Notes: generated by a model not told the origin, from the letters alone. A DNA stretch of 64,000 nt from a virus (IMGVR_UViG_3300045988_146577), one strand, 5' to 3'. Counted from the first letter of the stretch, positions 1-8,386 are shown. Numbers and translations are program-made.

Positions 1-1042
1 TGTCCATTTCGTACTTTAGCCGCTCAACATAAACCCTGTTCTCAGAAGCAGGTGGTGTGTATCCAAACTCTTTTGTGGTAAGACGTTTACGCAGCCCTGC
101 AACAGCCAGTTTCATCAGCGTTGCAGGTTCGTCGTCTGCCATCTTGGGCAGTGCTGGTGGCAATTCATGCCAGCGCCATGTGCAGGCATCGATAATGGAG
201 TCCTGCGTTGTTGAGGCCATTGCAGCTGTTACCGGCACATCCATGCGAACGGAGAAGGCTTTAAGCGCCTCAAGGAGATGGCGACGACCATTGATGGCGT
301 TATCTCGCTGGTGGGGGATACGCAGACGATGCGGCTGGTCGATTTTTATGTTGTTCGTAACCATGTGCGCAATGTCTTTAATGTCTGCATCGTCGATCGA
401 TTCGTAATAAGCGGGATAGAACGCTACTGGCTCTATTTTCAGTGCGCTGGCTACTTTCATCGCTCGGACGTTAATCTGGTCGTAGAATGGGGTAGGGTGC
501 GGATAAACCACGCTATAGAAGTTGTCTTTCCCGCCCGCTGTAATCAGTGAGCTTATGATTTTTGCAAAATCGTTGCGTTGGAACACGCTACCGATGTCGG
601 AAGTGAGCAGGATGATGTTGCCTTTGGCATATGTAGAAACCAACTGTTCGAGCGAGAGACGCGGTACAAAGTAGAACTGTTCTCGTGTGTTGGCCACCGT
701 CATTAGTTCGCAGATGTCGCGATATCCTTGCTCATTTTTAATTAGAGCGGTAAACGAGTAGTTACGTCCCCGCTCTAATGATTCCATACATCTCATAGAT
801 TCTTTAGCAAGTTTAGCCCGGTGCTCGTATGTGGGATCATCAACGATATTTAGTTTCACACCACAAATAACCGCCATGTCGTCACCAGCGGCACGTTGTA
901 GTGGAATAACACTCGCAATATTCATGCTATCTGCTGAAATTACAGCGGTGTAGCCAGCTTCTCTGGCAATCTTCACCGCGTTTTCTGCTTTTAGAGCCGA
1001 CTCCCCAAGTGAGAAGTCAGTTCGAACCATCAGTGCTTTCAT
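1..1042 (-). CDS. DnaE-type DNA polymerase III alpha-like protein, N-terminal PHP-domain part (partial; continues past left edge)
   Basis: Hand translation from ATG at 1042 reads MKALMVRTDFSLGES...AVISADS...GVKLNIV... with no stop seen down to position 1; pattern resembles the PHP domain at the N-terminus of DnaE. Absent from ORF track, presumably because it runs off the window. Confidence 0.45.
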   Translation of the reverse strand, partial: MKALMVRTDFSLGESALKAENAVKIAREAGYTAVISADSMNIASVIPLQRAAGDDMAVICGVKLNIVDDPTYEHRAKLAKESMRCMESLERGRNYSFTALIKNEQGYRDICELMTVANTREQFYFVPRLSLEQLVSTYAKGNIILLTSDIGSVFQRNDFAKIISSLITAGGKDNFYSVVYPHPTPFYDQINVRAMKVASALKIEPVAFYPAYYESIDDADIKDIAHMVTNNIKIDQPHRLRIPHQRDNAINGRRHLLEALKAFSVRMDVPVTAAMASTTQDSIIDACTWRWHELPPALPKMADDEPATLMKLAVAGLRKRLTTKEFGYTPPASENRVYVERLKYEMD

Positions 1043-1222
1043 GTGTTTTTACCTTTATGGTTTTTTTGATTTTGTCATTGGGGAAGCCTACGAACTTCCC
1101 ATACATCGAAATCGCAACTTCTTTTGCTGATTGGTGACAATCGGGCTTGTCTGGACATACCAGACAAGCCTTACCAGTTTCAGAAGCAGCGATAAGAGAG
1201 CCGAAACATCCTTTACGCACGA

Positions 1223-2458
1223 TCAACCAAATATTTTTTGAACAACTTCACGAGCCGCTTGTGCAGAAGCTGAAGGGAGTTTGTTAATGAAAGAACGCTC
1301 AATACCTGTCACAAAGTCGCCTCGCATCATTCCAATCTTGGCCGACAACAAAAGTTCACGAGGGCCAATTGGCTGACTGATAAGGTGTTCTTCGTATCCA
1401 TCGCGAACGATACCGGCAAACTTAACCATCTTTTCTGCGTATTCATCCACGATACCGGCATTTATCAACATGTTGATCTCTGCCTCTTTGCTCATGTATT
1501 TCACATTCGAAACGATGCCAAAACGCGAAAAGTTCGCGGCGTTCTGGATGTTTGTACCCTGGTACAAGCCGGTTTCATCACCAGATCCGTTCGTGTTGCC
1601 AGTGCCAATGAAAGCAAACCGTTCATGCGGAGTAATGCGACGCCATTCTGGAGTCGCCTCTTTGATGACTAACGCTTCACCTTCCAGCACTGGCTGATAC
1701 ACGCCAAGAATTTGTGGAAACGCAAAGTCGTATTCATCCGCGAGGTAAACCCAGCCATGCTTCATTGCGAGCGCAAGCAAGCCAGGCTCGAAATACGTAG
1801 AGCCATCACGCGCCAGAATTTGCCCCGTAACATGTGCCTCTTCCATTGATGCTGTATGTTGGGCACGGATCAACGGACGATTGAGCAAAGCACATAGTTG
1901 TGTAGGCAATGACGATTTGCCTGTTCCTGCATGACCCCACAAATAGCCAGGTATGCCAAGTTCAAGCATCATGAAAATGTCTTTGATCAGTTCGAAGTCG
2001 CCATATACGTAGCCCTTCTTCACTTCTGGAACGAACTCTGGAAACGGCGTATTGACGTTGACGCTAACCATGAGCGGCGTCCCACGTTTTGTTCCGAGTT
2101 CTTTCACCGTTACATTTAGCAGTTCGTGAGCTGCGACCAGATCTGTCTTGTACTCAACTGTGCCTGTGTAGCCTGGGCTACTGGTCACGCCAGATGATTT
2201 GGCCATTTCGCTTTTTTGCTCGGCACGTTTAGCTTGAATTGCATCAAGTGCCTTTTTCGATAGCGTTGGCTCATCTGGAAACTGTGTTGTGTACATTTTC
2301 AGTACGGTGTCAGGATCGGCATCTTTTACTGACTCAGGAATGCCCTCGCAATTACCATTGGCAACATGGGACTTAAAATAGTGAAATGATTTTCCGCACC
2401 ACTTGCAAACAAGGTAATCAGAAGGATTTTTTTCATTTTGCAGTGCAGTAGTAGTCAT
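1223..2458 (-). CDS. AAA+ ATPase (MoxR/CobS-like) with N-terminal Cys-rich motif
   Basis: Walker A GHAGTGKSS, Walker B-like VYLADEYD, N-terminal CKWCGKSFHYF...C motif; 411 aa ORF. Confidence 0.75.
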   Translation of the reverse strand: MTTTALQNEKNPSDYLVCKWCGKSFHYFKSHVANGNCEGIPESVKDADPDTVLKMYTTQFPDEPTLSKKALDAIQAKRAEQKSEMAKSSGVTSSPGYTGTVEYKTDLVAAHELLNVTVKELGTKRGTPLMVSVNVNTPFPEFVPEVKKGYVYGDFELIKDIFMMLELGIPGYLWGHAGTGKSSLPTQLCALLNRPLIRAQHTASMEEAHVTGQILARDGSTYFEPGLLALAMKHGWVYLADEYDFAFPQILGVYQPVLEGEALVIKEATPEWRRITPHERFAFIGTGNTNGSGDETGLYQGTNIQNAANFSRFGIVSNVKYMSKEAEINMLINAGIVDEYAEKMVKFAGIVRDGYEEHLISQPIGPRELLLSAKIGMMRGDFVTGIERSFINKLPSASAQAAREVVQKIFG

Positions 2459-2553
2459 GCGTTTTTCCTTTGTTTTCTAATGAGCGTTCAACTTCTTATA
2501 TAAATATATCATTATCTATCGTAAGTGGTTACTTATCGTTAAGGCTGTTTTGT

Positions 2554-4662
2554 TCACTTTAAAATGATACGAGATAGTTCAGTAACTACAGATGAACCAA
2601 GACTATCAACGCTCGTTACCAGGGCATGATTTGCGTAAAATCTCTCCGGTGCATCAGTCATGATGCCAATTGCCATCAAATCAATGTCAGTCTGCGTTTC
2701 AATTTGCTTCGCAACCGAACGCAAATGAGCGTCAAAACCTCTCCCAACAGCCCACGGCTCGCCATCGCTCAGAACAAGCATGATCTTCCTGTCCTCCATG
2801 CGACCGGAAAATAACGATGCAAGGCTGGCTATGCTTTCACCATCCACGTTATTAAGAAGTGGGAATGTGTAGCCTACGCACCCCATACGTGAGCGAACTT
2901 CGCGAGAATTTGCTTTTTCATTCCAATTTTTGATGATAGGTAGCATTAAAGATTCAAAGCGAGAGAACTCATATTTGATAGCCTTAAGTTCTCCTGCTGC
3001 CATATGACTGCCAAATGTAGTGAAGCCGGTGATAATGTTGGGAACATTTATTCGATCAAGTGCATCGGCGATGGTATATGCACTTGCAAGAGCTAGTTTT
3101 ATCGTTTCGCCACTCATTGAACCCGATAAATCAATCACTTGTTGAACACAGGCGTTAACGGCTTTAGATTCTTCTTTTTTACGAAACACGCGATCATCAT
3201 TCATTGTTAATCTGTAGATACTTGAACCATGAATGCGCCCCCGACGCTGGCCAGGTATAAACTGAACTCTGTTTCTGCTTGCTATTGCACGTTCCAGGTC
3301 TTTTGCCAGCGTCGACGAAACACCTGACGAAAGGTGCTTTTCAATATATTTGTCGAAGAGTTGGTTGCCTTCAGGAACGATGCGATAACGGCTGATTGGA
3401 TATCCACCTAAATCAATATCGGAGAATGTTTTAATAAGCCGTTTGATATGGGCTTCTGCCTGATCAATCGAGCCGATGAAGTCGTATGAGCGATTGTATG
3501 GCCTGTATTCGCTTTTCGAGCTTTCTGTTAACTCGCTTTTAATCGTTTCGGATAGCGCATCTTCTGTCATGCCTCCGACTTCATCTTCCATGCTATCCAA
3601 CTCCTCTAAAGCCTCTTCCAGACTCATTTTTGACGGAGTTGGAATGTCTGAAGAGCCGTCTTCTGTCGTTTTTCTTTTTTCGTGGTCAGCGGTTAATGAT
3701 TCTGACGCCGCGTTATCAGAAGCATCAGAATCTGATACCGCTTTATCATTTTCTGTATCATCGAATATTGTTTCTGATGATTCAGGATTATCTGAATCAT
3801 CACTGTCGTTATTATCATGTTTGTGCTTACTATGTGACTCTGATTTAATAGATTTGTGATTATCTAACGATGAGGGTGTCTCATGATCTTCGTTGTCTTC
3901 ATTGTTTTCTCCAGAGGCATCCGTCTGGTCAGCGTCTGAAGGATCGGAAGTTTTTCCCGGAGCTGACTCCTTACCTTTGCTTTCACTTTCAGTGTCTTTG
4001 AGGATCTTAGCTATGGTCGCAGCCACCTTTACACAATCCTCGGTGCAAGACATGTTACGCACGGCCACATCGATACCATGTTCTTTTAATAATGAAATTG
4101 GTTTCTCAATGACAGGCCAATATTCATCCATGAAATCTACGAACGGTGCTTGGCCATCCCAGGCTCTTACAACCGGACAGAGAAAGAAGTTTAGAAAAAG
4201 CGCGCGCTGATCTTTGCCACAATAAGCAATAGCCTCTGAAGCCTTTGGTTTAAAGACTTTTTCGATTATAAGGCGCTGAGTTGCCATCAGATTACGTCTT
4301 GTTCCGTTAAAGACCTGACCCATTTTTCGCTCGATGAACACGTCTTCTAAGGCATTCCATAGCGACCAGGAAGGAACGCGTCCTTTTTCTCTCATTTTGT
4401 TGGACACACGAATATCGGTAAACAAAATGTGAGCAACCTCATGATCGAGAAATCCGCGCACAGCATTCATCAATGCCGGTGTTGCGTTATCCGGGATTGA
4501 TGGGATGTTTACGAGAATTGGCTCTCCATCATCGTTATAGCGTACATAAGCGTCGTCCCCTCGTTCTGCAACAGGGATGTTTTTACCTGAAAGGAGAGCG
4601 ACTACTCGTTTTACACTGTCACGGAAGTCCTGAACCTCTTTGATGGAACGTTTTTTAGACAT
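2554..4662 (-). CDS. von Willebrand factor A (vWA) domain protein with long acidic Ser/Asp/Glu-rich central region (CobT-like)
   Basis: C-terminal MIDAS-like motif VIDLSGSMSG; strongly acidic low-complexity middle; directly upstream of the AAA+ gene on same strand. Confidence 0.75.
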   Translation of the reverse strand: MSKKRSIKEVQDFRDSVKRVVALLSGKNIPVAERGDDAYVRYNDDGEPILVNIPSIPDNATPALMNAVRGFLDHEVAHILFTDIRVSNKMREKGRVPSWSLWNALEDVFIERKMGQVFNGTRRNLMATQRLIIEKVFKPKASEAIAYCGKDQRALFLNFFLCPVVRAWDGQAPFVDFMDEYWPVIEKPISLLKEHGIDVAVRNMSCTEDCVKVAATIAKILKDTESESKGKESAPGKTSDPSDADQTDASGENNEDNEDHETPSSLDNHKSIKSESHSKHKHDNNDSDDSDNPESSETIFDDTENDKAVSDSDASDNAASESLTADHEKRKTTEDGSSDIPTPSKMSLEEALEELDSMEDEVGGMTEDALSETIKSELTESSKSEYRPYNRSYDFIGSIDQAEAHIKRLIKTFSDIDLGGYPISRYRIVPEGNQLFDKYIEKHLSSGVSSTLAKDLERAIASRNRVQFIPGQRRGRIHGSSIYRLTMNDDRVFRKKEESKAVNACVQQVIDLSGSMSGETIKLALASAYTIADALDRINVPNIITGFTTFGSHMAAGELKAIKYEFSRFESLMLPIIKNWNEKANSREVRSRMGCVGYTFPLLNNVDGESIASLASLFSGRMEDRKIMLVLSDGEPWAVGRGFDAHLRSVAKQIETQTDIDLMAIGIMTDAPERFYANHALVTSVDSLGSSVVTELSRIILK

Positions 4663-4760
4663 GGCTAATCCTTTGTTATGAAAACAAATTATTTACTAGT
4701 GTGTTTAATGTAGCACTGCGCGAACAGGGAACTAAGCCATTCGCGCAGGGAGAAGAGGGG

Positions 4761-4973
4761 TTAACAGATTCTGACGGCTAAAGACCCGGAGCCGGTATTG
4801 AGAAGCGTGAAGCGTTTGTTGTTAAGTTCGAATATAAATCCAGTTGTGTCATTCACACCAACCTGAATCTGCTCATTCGGTAGATCGGTGAGGATGTCAG
4901 CTACACACTCATCAACTAATTTCTGTACGTGTCCGATCTCAAGAGCGATTAGGCTGGAAATAGTGGTGTTCAT
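4761..4973 (-). CDS. hypothetical small protein
   Basis: 70 aa ORF, no recognisable motif. Confidence 0.3.
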   Translation of the reverse strand: MNTTISSLIALEIGHVQKLVDECVADILTDLPNEQIQVGVNDTTGFIFELNNKRFTLLNTGSGSLAVRIC

Positions 4974-5224
4974 TCAATCAATCCATTCTAACTTATACTA
5001 TGGTAAGGAATACTACTAAAATTTATATCAATACTGAATACATTCATATCATATGCAAGTTGATTTTCTTACCTGTTTTGGGCTAATTTTTCTCCGTGCA
5101 ATGGCCTTTAACCGGTCTTTTAAGTGCCTATCGAAAAAAATGATAATAGCTTTACAACCCTAACCTTTGATGTAATATCGGTAAGCACTTACCAGAGAGA
5201 ATTGAACGCGCAAAGGTTGTAACC

Positions 5225-5611
5225 ATGTCTGATAACAAGATTGAATTTATAGAAAGTCGCTACGCTGCTTTTATCGCAGGGTTGATTGAATCCTCACCTA
5301 TGAGCCAGGCCCAGATAGCCAAAACAATTGGGTATAAAAACGCCAACAACCTTTCTTTAATTAAAAGCGGCAAAATTCCTTTGCCTATCGATAAGGTTCG
5401 TCCGCTGGCGCTGGCACTGGGCATTGAGCCAAGTCGTCTTATGATGATGGTGCTGGAAGAACGCCAACCCGAACTCGCAGCATTTTTATACAAAGAAGGC
5501 ACTGCTCCTCTTAACGAGGACGAAAAACAGGTTCTTGCTGCATATAACGAGCGATTCGGTAAAGAGAAAGGCGCATCACAAAAGGTTGTTGAGGCCATAA
5601 AGTCTCTATGA
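5225..5611 (+). CDS. HTH DNA-binding regulator (XRE-like), candidate repressor
   Basis: 128 aa; helix-turn-helix-like segment SQAQIAKTIGYKNANNLSLIKSGK; palindrome GGTAAGCACTTACC about 35 nt upstream. Confidence 0.55.
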   Translation: MSDNKIEFIESRYAAFIAGLIESSPMSQAQIAKTIGYKNANNLSLIKSGKIPLPIDKVRPLALALGIEPSRLMMMVLEERQPELAAFLYKEGTAPLNEDEKQVLAAYNERFGKEKGASQKVVEAIKSL

Positions 5612-6709
5612 AAAATTTACACGAATAAGCTCTGTTGATAGACGATCTCCCTTAAATTTGTGGTCAATTTCGTCTAAATCCGGTTGCTCTACGATTGATG
5701 CGATGTACGTCGAGAAACTTTCTAAGGCGTCTCGCATCTCGTCCATATAATCGTGCCGGTCGTAGACCCGATCTATCCCCTCAAGACTGTGGTTCATGAT
5801 TTTACGTGATACCTCCTGGCTTATGCCTAATGCTGGGAAGTAACTACGCGCAGTACGGCGCAAATCTCGGGGTGTAAATGGCTCAAGCTCCATCAGTTCT
5901 GGTCGTTCCAGAATACGACGTAATGCCTGGGCTATTGCCACTTTAGACATAGGAAGGTCTTTCCCGATTTTTTTATTCGAAGGCACGAGCCACTGGCTGT
6001 CTTTACCATATTCGAACAACTCTTCAATACAAGTGCGCATTAATGAGCTTAAAGGCAGAGAATGCTCACGGGCAGATTTGTTCCTCTTGCCTTGATTCCA
6101 AACCCCACGCTTAAGATTGAACTCACTTTTTTTAGCCCGCAGTACTTCGTCAGGTCGTCTTGCGGATACAAGACATAGCCTGGCCGCCCATTTTGTACCA
6201 GCACACACATTGAAGTAGTCCCATATATTCCAGAACACCCATACCTCTGCGTCAGTCAGCTTCCGCTCGCGGGGCGTGGGCTTTGCGCCACCGGCAACTT
6301 TGTTAAGTGACATATCGTTTAACGGTGACACGTCTATCATCCCCTGGAAGGCGCACCAGCTAAGGAACTGCTTCATCAGAGAGAAAACGCGGCGGCCCAT
6401 AACAATTTTGCCATCCAGTATTAGTGGGTTGACCAGTTGGTTCACCATGAACCTATTAATATCACTTACTTTTACATCGGCAATGTGCGGAAAAACATGT
6501 ATCAAAATACAATGAACAGCGATCTCTGGCCGACGTCTGGTTATGAGCAGAGATAAGCGAGTGAATAACATGAATGCGTCCGAGAATCTCATGTCATTGC
6601 TGACCTGGGAGATCATAACGGCCTGCATTTGAGATGCTCTTTCGAGATACTCTATCGCCTCTTTTGAGGTGTTCTCCGCAGCGCGTGCTCTGTCAAAGCT
6701 ATTTTTCAT
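5606..6709 (-). CDS. int: tyrosine recombinase / phage integrase
   Basis: 367 aa; C-terminal catalytic region with RDLRRTARS...HSLEGIDRVYDRHDY (R..H..R..Y pattern). Confidence 0.85.
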   Translation of the reverse strand: MKNSFDRARAAENTSKEAIEYLERASQMQAVMISQVSNDMRFSDAFMLFTRLSLLITRRRPEIAVHCILIHVFPHIADVKVSDINRFMVNQLVNPLILDGKIVMGRRVFSLMKQFLSWCAFQGMIDVSPLNDMSLNKVAGGAKPTPRERKLTDAEVWVFWNIWDYFNVCAGTKWAARLCLVSARRPDEVLRAKKSEFNLKRGVWNQGKRNKSAREHSLPLSSLMRTCIEELFEYGKDSQWLVPSNKKIGKDLPMSKVAIAQALRRILERPELMELEPFTPRDLRRTARSYFPALGISQEVSRKIMNHSLEGIDRVYDRHDYMDEMRDALESFSTYIASIVEQPDLDEIDHKFKGDRLSTELIRVNFS

Positions 6710-7732: not shown

Positions 7733-7819
7733 TGGCGGAGAGTAATGGAATCGAACCATCATCGCTTGCGCAATGGGACGGTTTTCAAGACCGCTTGAGC
7801 ACCATGCTCCCTACTCTCC
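7733..7819 (-). tRNA. tRNA-Ser (anticodon UGA), about 87 nt
   Basis: Acceptor stem GGAGAGT/ACTCTCC, discriminator G, encoded CCA, anticodon loop CUUGAAA, long variable arm; folded by eye. Confidence 0.6.
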
Positions 7820-8139
7820 AGCTATTGTGATGGTCGGTGCTGAACTCCGACACAGGGTTGTAGCAAGCCCCGCAAAGCGCGCACTACTGTAGTTGCGGCA
7901 CATCAGCCTGTGCATTCATCACAACGGTAAGATCACTACCTTTCGACCAGTCATTGTGCACATGAACGACGATTAACCGTAATGATCTTATCGTTGTGTT
8001 GTGAAGCCAGATGCTTATCTTCTGGTTGCTTCAAAGAGCTGCACTTCCTCACAACGGTAAGAGCACTGGTCTGACTCTATCGATTTACGGGCTTGTGGGT
8101 CAGTATCGCCGATTCGCCCAATGCTCTTACCTGTTGTGT

Positions 8140-8215
8140 TGGTGCCGGTTAACGGGATCGAACCGCTGACATCCTGCTTACAAGGCAGACGCTCTACCAA
8201 CTGAGCTAAACCGGC
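8140..8215 (-). tRNA. tRNA-Thr (anticodon UGU)
   Basis: Acceptor GCCGGTT/AACCGGC, anticodon loop CUUGUAA, T-loop GGTTCGATCC, encoded CCA. Confidence 0.65.
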
Positions 8216-8219
8216 AATT

Positions 8220-8306
8220 TGGTGGGGAGTGATGGAGTCGAACCACCCGAGTCGCAATGACAGTAGATTTACAGTCTACCCCGCTGCCCCTACGGACTAA
8301 CTCCCC
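8220..8306 (-). tRNA. tRNA-Tyr (anticodon GUA)
   Basis: Acceptor GGGGAGT/ACTCCCC, anticodon stem-loop GTAGA-CUGUAAA-TCTAC, T-loop GGTTCGACTCC, long variable arm, CCA. Confidence 0.65.
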
Positions 8307-8311
8307 TAAAT

Positions 8312-8386
8312 TGGCGATGGTGGGTGGATTCGAACCACCGACCAGTTGGTTAACAGCCAACTGCTCTACCGCTGAGCTACACCATC
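8312..8386 (-). tRNA. tRNA-Asn (anticodon GUU)
   Basis: Acceptor GATGGTG/CACCATC, anticodon stem-loop GTTGG-CUGUUAA-CCAAC, T-loop GGTTCGAATCC, CCA. Confidence 0.65.

Follow-up and report, generated by a model that had tools for sequence, protein, structure and literature searches.

In the Brucella cobaltochelatase CobSTN, a CobS hexamer serves as the motor, CobT as an adaptor with a linker of about 90 disordered residues, and CobN is docked at the side of the MIDAS, an adhesion site that depends on a metal ion. The shaft of CobT (Q373-R413) enters the pore of the CobS ring, and its N-terminal domain, CobT_N, is described as M48C-peptidase-like (all in bioRxiv 10.64898/2026.07.21.739949). Genes of the same two families form a cluster in tailed viruses, among them cyanophages, the Vibrio cholerae podovirus ICP2 and haloarchaeal viruses (PMC8651126), and a pair made up of a MoxR ATPase and a metallopeptidase-von Willebrand factor A (vWA) protein has been described in T4-like jumbo phages of group 2.2 (Iyer et al. 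2021, PMC7824862). NorQ/NorD, CbbQ/CbbO and Midasin-MIDAS follow a common motor-adaptor-client logic with NorB, Rubisco and pre-60S factors as clients; their adaptors have no peptidase domain. Here, we analyse a pair of this kind in IMGVR_UViG_3300045988_146577, a 64,000-nucleotide stretch of viral DNA (the window), in which a CobT-like adaptor of 702 residues and a CobS-like ATPase of 411 residues are encoded side by side. The gene pair is already annotated, common and known from many tailed phages, and is not new as an object. The N-terminal domain (N-domain) of its adaptor is predicted from sequence to be probably a zinc metallopeptidase.

Compared to Brucella CobS and CobT (9ujv and 9uka), the window pair is alike in its AAA+ residues, adaptor architecture, shaft segment and the adjacency of its genes, the ATPase being about 30% identical to cellular cobS in tblastn matches. 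It differs in lacking a CobN partner, in its intact HExxH motif, in a 140-residue extension of the ATPase that carries a predicted zinc finger and in its reversed gene order. Among the cellular loci, cobS lies directly upstream of cobT in 75 of 80, the reverse of the usual viral order. With the clusters of other tailed viruses, the window pair has the two-gene arrangement and the families in common, including phrog_249, and the adaptor family gives a profile match to the S-PM2 "peptidase"; the SSU5-like, DnaE-type branch bears a predicted Ros/MucR-type finger, whereas the ATPases of ICP2 and S-PM2 do not. The domain architecture is also that of the jumbo-phage pair, a likeness drawn from the published description; virion assembly was proposed there, whereas replication genes surround the pair here and in three other lineages.

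The adaptor and its zincin motif

An exhaustive HMMER search (E ≤ 1e-3) yielded 5,097 cluster representatives of the adaptor, the best 146 full-length ones of which were aligned with the window protein (n = 147). The motif G-F-x-D-H-E-x-x-H is almost invariant in this alignment, with H74 and E75 each present in 144 of the 147 sequences and H78 in 143. It is followed downstream by N-x-x-E-D-x-x-x-E, of which E106 is conserved in 146 and E111 in all 147 representatives. For the cellular proteins, 80 alpha-proteobacterial loci were collected via a Brucella CobT fragment and 76 full-length CobT sequences, with 64-79% identity to the Brucella protein, were rebuilt from them and aligned with the viral-type set. 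In all 76, these columns read G-x-x-D-S/A-M-A-L-R/K, and none has H-E-x-x-H; both downstream glutamates are retained. The loss of HExxH from cellular CobT and its full presence in the phage type suggest that the chelatase adaptor is a dead peptidase, and that the phage type carries the full zincin signature. This contrast between an intact viral and a dead chelatase peptidase motif is not stated in the literature searched.

The motif extends to other phages, being HEVAH in Rhizobium phage RHEph10, as in the window, HECYH in ICP2, HEAGH in Roseobacter phage CRP-810 and HEISH in Gordonia phage GMA3. The 740-residue "peptidase" adjoining cobS in cyanophage S-PM2 combines HEVGH with the MIDAS sequence DWSGS. 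In the cobT of Pseudomonas phage nickie (locus L167, 6974-9058), SEISK stands in place of HExxH, while the pair itself, the predicted zinc finger of the ATPase and the synteny with dnaE are kept; nickie thus offers a naturally occurring "dead-peptidase" form for comparison. The cyanophage "peptidase" annotation has been regarded as a mistake (Liu et al. 2021, PMC8651126). On this label, the motif data favour the view of Iyer et al. (2021) over that of Liu et al. (2021).

The remainder of the adaptor is that of a CobT. Pfam CobT is matched over residues 9-292 (E = 3e-27) and CobT_C, the vWA family, over residues 492-701 (E = 3e-82); the protein belongs to phrog_1576 (E = 4e-301, PHROGs). Against CobT in the PDB, the E-value is 9e-13 for the single sequence and 2e-63 with the family profile. 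The AlphaFold model has a predicted local distance difference test score (pLDDT) of 80, and the secondary structure of its N-domain agrees with that of Brucella CobT_N as described in bioRxiv 10.64898/2026.07.21.739949. The acidic linker is disordered in the model (pLDDT < 50 at residues 231-341) and is a family-wide feature, with a median of 174 residues between anchor columns and a median of 37% acidic residues. In the segment equivalent to the CobT shaft, G471, G475, L482, L485, D489, R491 and F493 are invariant or nearly so in the family. The MIDAS sequence DLSGS (residues 511-515) has family-invariant D511, S513 and S515, and the best structural matches of the vWA domain are NorD and MDN1-MIDAS.

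Single-sequence and profile searches of PDB sequences with the N-domain gave matches at chance level (HLA, SOD and AcrIIA26) and no peptidase. When 18 N-domains were scanned on their own against Pfam at E ≤ 1, CobT was the only family returned.

The ATPase and its predicted N-terminal finger

The 411-residue protein matches Pfam AAA_5 (E = 2e-15) and phrog_249, labelled "porphyrin biosynthesis" (E = 2e-106). It aligns with Brucella CobS in the PDB (9ujv) with an E-value of 2e-25, over residues 141-411 only. Its AlphaFold model has a pLDDT of 84.7, with NorQ and CbbQ as the best Foldseek matches. K181, D241, E242, the sensor-1 residues N288 and N290, the arginine finger R312 and the sensor-2 residue R367 are invariant in 24 homologues with 45-78% identity. 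The original prediction, made from the sequence of the window, had placed between 1223 and 4662 a MoxR/CobS-like AAA+ ATPase directly downstream of a 702-residue protein with a C-terminal vWA MIDAS and a middle of about 150 Ser/Asp/Glu-rich residues, and had taken the two for an ATPase-vWA pair of the chaperone type. The open reading frames (ORFs) lie exactly as described there, and each of these features is borne out: the searches it had suggested (AAA_5/CbbQ_C, VWA and CobT profiles) find the AAA_5, CobT and CobT_C families, the predicted structures contain the vWA and MoxR-type AAA+ folds, the low-complexity middle is the linker at residues 222-380, and an ATPase of the AAA_5/CbbQ_C type adjoins a vWA gene with an intact MIDAS.

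About 140 N-terminal residues of the ATPase are absent from cellular CobS, the median length of which is 332 residues. The Cys-rich motif also reported there is real and consists of C18, C21, H26, H31 and C37. C18, H26 and H31 are invariant among the 24 homologues, at least 90% of which also have C21; the majority pattern is C-x2-C-x9-H-x4-H, the last histidine being replaced by Cys37 in the SSU5 clade. The strict CxxC-x9-H pattern is found in 103 of 113 full-length homologues and in none of 75 cellular CobS sequences. One sub-clade is degenerate, with C-x2-D and a tyrosine replacing two of the ligands. A profile of the N-termini, run against 177,635 PDB sequences, ranks Ros (2jsp) first, with an E-value of 3.7e-4 and the ligands in register. 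At E ≤ 0.1, Pfam ROS_MUCR (PF05443) picks out eight of the 24 members, the best of them with 3e-4; none reaches the gathering threshold, and the window protein is left unmatched. In the model, this region forms a hairpin and two helices (pLDDT 76-92), the Ros/MucR fold being beta-beta-beta-alpha-alpha. The Cys motif is accordingly assigned as a predicted zinc finger of the Ros/MucR type, an assignment that is not stated in the literature searched; a literature search linking MucR-type fingers with phage CobS returned nothing relevant.

With Ros, the finger has the C-x2-C-x9-H-x3/4-H spacing and a following T/S-x-x-x-Y segment in common. It differs in being fused to an AAA+ ATPase, in the last His to Cys replacement of the SSU5 clade and in being about neutral rather than basic: the net charge of the module is around 0, and −3 in the window. 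Ros/MucR domains bind DNA; the finger of the ATPase may mediate protein contacts instead of DNA binding. The Ros/MucR-type finger is absent from the ATPases of ICP2, S-PM2, CRP-810 and GMA3, in whose N-terminal extensions Pfam finds no named domain.

Relation to cobalt chelation and genomic setting

Although the two proteins resemble CobS and CobT, they score far below the NCBIfam cut-offs for these equivalogs. The ATPase reaches 84.8 bits against CobS (TIGR01650, residues 141-411 only; cut-off 558.55) and the adaptor 65.9 bits against CobT (TIGR01651; cut-off 759.05). The ATPase has the CobS-type fold, a MoxR-class AAA+ module with Walker A and B, sensor-1, arginine finger and sensor-2, and the adaptor has the CobT-type architecture of N-domain, disordered acidic linker, shaft and vWA domain with MIDAS; the alpha-proteobacterial CobT sampled is of a pseudo-peptidase type without HExxH, whereas the window protein has HEVAH. 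No CobN-like ORF was found in the window or in the rest of the related plasmid, host chromosomes not having been searched directly, and the three ORFs of the window longer than 1,300 residues encode tail fibre, tip and tape-measure proteins. On a plasmid with 99.1% identity, the remaining genes include those for class Ia NrdAB, thymidylate synthase, dihydrofolate reductase and other replication functions, with neither cobN nor a gene for a B12-dependent enzyme among them. E. coli lacks a de novo corrin pathway, and making B12 in it needed about 30 imported genes including cobN, cobS and cobT (PMC6249242); Salmonella uses an anaerobic route without CobNST.

These observations bear on the proposal of Liu et al. 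(2021), made for haloarchaeal and other tailed viruses (PMC8651126), that viral CobS and CobT are products of auxiliary metabolic genes that hijack host CobN, raise cobalt insertion and thereby boost B12-dependent nucleotide synthesis. The homology to CobS and CobT is clear and includes the shaft and the MIDAS, through which the solved complex makes its contacts with CobS and CobN. The aerobic pathway is used by some hosts of related phages, such as Rhizobium and Pseudomonas, which also speaks for a role in B12 synthesis. For this element, the idea of CobN hijacking cannot apply, as neither the window nor the related plasmid has a CobN-like ORF and E. coli lacks a de novo corrin pathway. The ribonucleotide reductase of the related plasmid is of class Ia and B12-independent, the viral N-domain retains the peptidase motif that is missing from true CobT, and the Vibrio cholerae phage ICP2 has the same pair. 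The field itself has declared the function of cyanophage cobS unknown (PMC9983427). We therefore regard a metabolic B12 function as very unlikely, and the pair very probably as a CobST-like machine that is not a cobalt chelatase here.

Even cellular CobST may not be confined to one task. Bartonella is not known to synthesise B12, and its loci (L005 and L070) contain cobT, which hints that cellular CobST may have a second role.

The pair belongs to an SSU5-like phage-plasmid. The 3.8 kb around it have 98.8% identity with Escherichia phage Cyrano (pLF82) and about 74% with Salmonella phage SSU5, and the same DNA is present in 245 of 5,426 complete E. coli genomes (about 4.5%), in which all 257 copies are plasmid-borne; it is this combination that identifies the window as part of such an element and not as the integrated prophage that had been assumed. 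The RefSeq labels on a near-identical plasmid are "cobaltochelatase CobT-related protein" for the adaptor and "AAA family ATPase" for its partner. In the Cyrano record (OV696614), CYRAN_47 and CYRAN_48 are labelled "dimethylbenzimidazole phosphoribosyltransferase" and "cobalamin synthetase". These functions belong to Salmonella namesakes, CobT and CobS, to which the pair is unrelated, so that the labels are an error of name transfer. ORF calls place the pair in a minus-strand string that runs from a 70-residue ORF through the adaptor, the ATPase and a 69-residue ORF to dnaE, which starts at position 1042, is transcribed in the same direction and continues past the start of the window (Table 1). 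The location beside the polymerase gene that had been predicted holds, with the 69-residue ORF between dnaE and the ATPase gene. An intergenic region of 251 nucleotides separates the string from a divergent helix-turn-helix gene for a putative repressor. The putative repressor gene (5225-5611, plus strand) and a tyrosine integrase gene (5606-6709, minus strand) are convergent and overlap by 6 nucleotides. A promoter and terminator scan of positions 900-5700 gave counts no higher than in shuffled sequences and was not used.

Table 1. Positions of the features of the locus, counted from the first letter of the window
Feature	Position	Strand	Basis or remark
Helix-turn-helix gene, homologue of CYRAN_45 "putative repressor"	5225..5611	+	Pfam HTH_19, phrog_8, Cyrano annotation
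70-residue ORF (CYRAN_46 homologue)	4973..4761	-	phrog_2627, Cyrano annotation; leads the leftward gene string
CobT-like adaptor, 702 residues	2554..4662	-	ORF; zincin-like N-domain, acidic disordered linker, vWA/MIDAS C-domain
N-domain (residues 1-231)	3970..4662	-	Matches Pfam CobT in isolation (E = 1e-21); a helix, a sheet of three strands, a bundle of helices
HEVAH (residues 74-78), zincin HExxH	4429..4443	-	Family alignment
NALEDVFIE (residues 103-111), candidate third zinc ligand	4330-4356	-	Family alignment
Acidic Ser/Asp/Glu-rich linker (residues 222-380)	3523..3999	-	159 residues, 48% S/D/E, net charge −35
Shaft-equivalent segment (residues 463-505)	3148..3276	-	Profile alignment to 9uka_G, Brucella CobT shaft Q373-R413
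vWA domain (residues 492-701)	2560..3189	-	MIDAS D511-x-S513-x-S515 at nucleotides 3118-3132
CobS-like MoxR-class AAA+ ATPase, 411 residues	1223..2458	-	ORF; same strand, 95 nucleotides downstream of the cobT-like gene
Predicted N-terminal Ros/MucR-type zinc finger (residues 14-70)	2249..2419	-	C18-x2-C21-x9-H31, C37 replacing the usual last His
AAA+ module (residues 141-411)	1226..2038	-	Assigned by correspondence with Brucella CobS motifs
Walker A GHAGTGKS (K181)	1913-1936	-	Invariant
Walker B D241-E242	within 1727-1744	-	Invariant
69-residue 4-Cys ORF	1017..1226	-	phrog_6337, E = 2e-44; between the ATPase gene and dnaE
dnaE 5' part (DNA polymerase III alpha)	1..1042	-	RefSeq annotation of near-identical plasmid and translation

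The setting of the window pair is repeated in other phages. The order cobT-like gene, cobS-like gene, one or two small ORFs and dnaE recurs in three metagenomic relatives with a 47-48% identical ATPase, in which dnaE is followed by genes for a gp32-like single-stranded DNA-binding protein, a 5'-3' exonuclease and RecA. The same succession of cobT-like gene, cobS-like gene, small ORF and dnaE is found in Pseudomonas phage nickie and Rhizobium phage RHEph10. In ICP2, the pair immediately precedes the primase, helicase and PolA-type polymerase genes, and in the T4-like cyanophage S-PM2 it lies between gp46 and gp45, inside the gp47-gp46 ... gp45-gp44-gp62-gp43 replication cluster. The pair is embedded in replication modules whose polymerases are of three different types, a placement that is not stated in the literature searched. 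A search of viral contigs with a diverse CobS alignment was of no use for distant context, the 80 loci kept all being SSU5-like and 78-100% identical, and the record of Xanthomonas phage JGB6, fragmented into many short coding sequences, was uninterpretable and was dropped.

This placement also bears on what Iyer et al. (2021, PMC7824862) proposed for this domain architecture, namely a chaperone of virion assembly coupled to proteolytic processing of structural proteins; in the archaeal virus ATV, the MoxR-vWA pair has been shown to act in assembly. The head module of the element, with portal, scaffold and major head protein genes, has no recognisable prohead protease, leaving room for such an activity. 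The pair of the window, however, lies 15-40 kb from the structural genes and is co-oriented with dnaE, ligase, primase and helicase, and that of S-PM2 is inside the replication cluster, outside the morphogenesis clusters. It is common for portal-scaffold-capsid modules to lack a protease, which lessens the weight of the missing prohead protease, and a function in assembly appears improbable.

Expression in the Cyrano lysogen was taken from the supplement of the LF82 transcriptome, the last columns of which were read as normalised expression, in agreement with the fold values of the main text. Against a local background of about 9.8, the putative repressor CYRAN_45 reaches 95.8 (about ten times background), whereas the cobT-like CYRAN_47 (7.8) and the cobS-like CYRAN_48 (6.7) are not above background; dnaE (CYRAN_49) is at 10.1. 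The pair is switched off together with dnaE in the plasmid state. Its silence in the lysogen argues against a defence or "moron" role expressed there and for a lytic role.

The original prediction had mentioned conflict systems. As a system of this kind, a MoxR-vWA sensor-effector would guard the lysogen against other phages or plasmids. MoxR-vWA pairs do form the cores of proposed conflict systems, and phage-plasmids carry many defence and toxin genes. This lead is not supported: lysogen expression of the pair is at background, unlike that of the toxin-antitoxin genes of the element, the neighbours are the 70-residue ORF, the 69-residue ORF and dnaE, with no adjacent VMAP-like third component or effector, and the pair is in the core gene set of strictly lytic cyanomyoviruses and in ICP2. 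PADLOC gave no credible match. When the pair and both small flanking ORFs were scanned, the marginal match to DrmE (E = 7e-4) fell over the acidic linker and is regarded as spurious, a low-complexity artefact. We consider a defence function highly improbable.

The 69-residue ORF has a TTG start that overlaps the stop codon of the ATPase gene, and its 3' end overlaps the start of dnaE by 26 nucleotides; it is unannotated in the RefSeq plasmid. Its N-terminal GCFGS-x13-C-x2-C-x5-C motif is common to proteins of 167-184 residues at the same position in loci L162, L164 and L166 and in phages nickie and RHEph10, making the window copy look like a truncated member of this group. Pfam assigns the conserved 4-Cys small proteins to no family. 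The cysteine spacing is reminiscent of the [4Fe-4S] ligands of Wbl, AddB and EndoIII proteins. The ORF may or may not belong to the ATPase-adaptor system. Between their cobS-like and 4-Cys genes, distant relatives have a gene resembling sigma-70 region 2 (L162, 9182-9856; L168, 10819-11454), of which the window has no counterpart. In several relatives, a uracil-DNA-glycosylase-like domain is fused to the phage DnaE (L162, 10387-13809; L164, 9739-13083; L168, 12219-15632).

Elsewhere in the window, four tRNA genes are present at 7733-8386 on the minus strand (Ser-tga, Thr-tgt, Tyr-gta and Asn-gtt), where the annotations of Cyrano and of the related plasmid pYLMB30c list three (Ser, Thr and Asn). 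Between 52000 and 56000, the G+C content falls to 0.39, compared to 0.44-0.50 elsewhere, and the GC and AT skews are reversed; this may be an accessory or cargo region. Positions 62100-112094 of pYLMB30c contain metG, apbC (an Fe-S cluster carrier), polymerase III theta, a HumD-like protein, a type I restriction-modification system and dfrA51. This plasmid has a large nucleotide and replication toolkit, including class Ia nrdAB and thyA, and nothing related to cobalamin.

Proposed mechanism and significance

The catalytic residues, MIDAS, shaft and fold in common with CobST make it very probable that the pair works like CobST mechanically. Transposing the Brucella mechanism to the window pair, six ATPase subunits would form a ring that grips the shaft of the adaptor and its lid-binding N-domain. 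The MIDAS face would capture an acidic residue of a target protein, in the place of CobN, and ATP hydrolysis would pull or turn the adaptor and so remodel the target. The zincin site could then cut the target or a neighbouring protein. The target would be a phage or host protein that is needed for lytic DNA replication or obstructs it, and the Ros/MucR-type finger may localise the machine by contact with DNA or with a partner protein. Our best explanation, which we hold with middling confidence, is that viral CobS and CobT form a motor-adaptor, an ATP-driven protein remodeller that is vWA-targeted and has a zinc metallopeptidase, probably an active one, acting early in the lytic cycle and linked to replication. 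The part that makes it a replication-linked protease is more tentative.

A protease of this design might instead serve host takeover or counter-defence, as an early machine that destroys a host defence, nucleoid or replication protein and has no direct role at the replisome. The intact zincin motif, the vWA capture domain and the unfoldase-type motor suit such a task, the pair heads a gene string facing a putative repressor, suggesting early expression, and it occurs in many unrelated lytic phages. The loss of HExxH in nickie speaks against it, as does the location of the S-PM2 and ICP2 pairs in replication modules and not among early host-shutoff genes. This alternative overlaps the replication-linked explanation and differs from it mainly in the target; we consider it somewhat unlikely, though clearly less so than the alternatives discussed above.

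Several points weigh against the replication-linked peptidase explanation. In CRP-810 and GMA3, the pair is not beside recognisable replication genes, and the DnaE-type examples may all descend from one ancestral replication module, so that the neighbourhood is circumstantial. As nickie keeps the pair without HExxH, proteolysis cannot be essential everywhere. Fold searches, in which the N-domain was not isolated, gave vWA matches only and none to a peptidase; the peptidase fold of the N-domain thus rests on homology to Brucella CobT_N together with the motif. The cellular comparison is narrow, being limited to alpha-proteobacteria 64-79% identical to Brucella CobT, and the 147 "phage-type" representatives may not all be viral. 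Finally, the net charge around zero of the finger, its degenerate sub-clade and its absence from ICP2 and the cyanophage leave tethering to DNA weakly supported.

A more general formulation, which we put forward as a speculation that is doubtful at present, is that viral cobS and cobT are generally non-metabolic and encode a replisome-associated, ATP-driven and vWA-targeted metalloprotease or unfoldase that processes or clears protein for phage replication. In the SSU5/DnaE-type branch, such a machine would be localised by the Ros/MucR-type finger, and it would broadly resemble, by analogy, the eukaryotic removal of DNA-bound proteins by a protease together with an AAA+ ATPase.

As a sequence feature of the window, the pair is ordinary. 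What phage cobS does has been asked since cyanophages were first sequenced; the gene serves as a marker and is counted as a B12 "auxiliary metabolic gene" in many virome surveys, and among marine cyanomyoviruses viral cobS/cobT forms a near-universal core gene set. With the pair on a phage-plasmid of E. coli, its function becomes genetically tractable, in a host without the aerobic B12 pathway and with inducible lysogens (Cyrano in LF82 and SSU5 in Salmonella), and the peptidase contrast, the predicted zinc finger and the placement in replication modules make the question of function testable in E. coli. If the pair is indeed a replication-linked protease or remodeller, many auxiliary metabolic gene annotations would need correction, and phage replication would have a new accessory factor.

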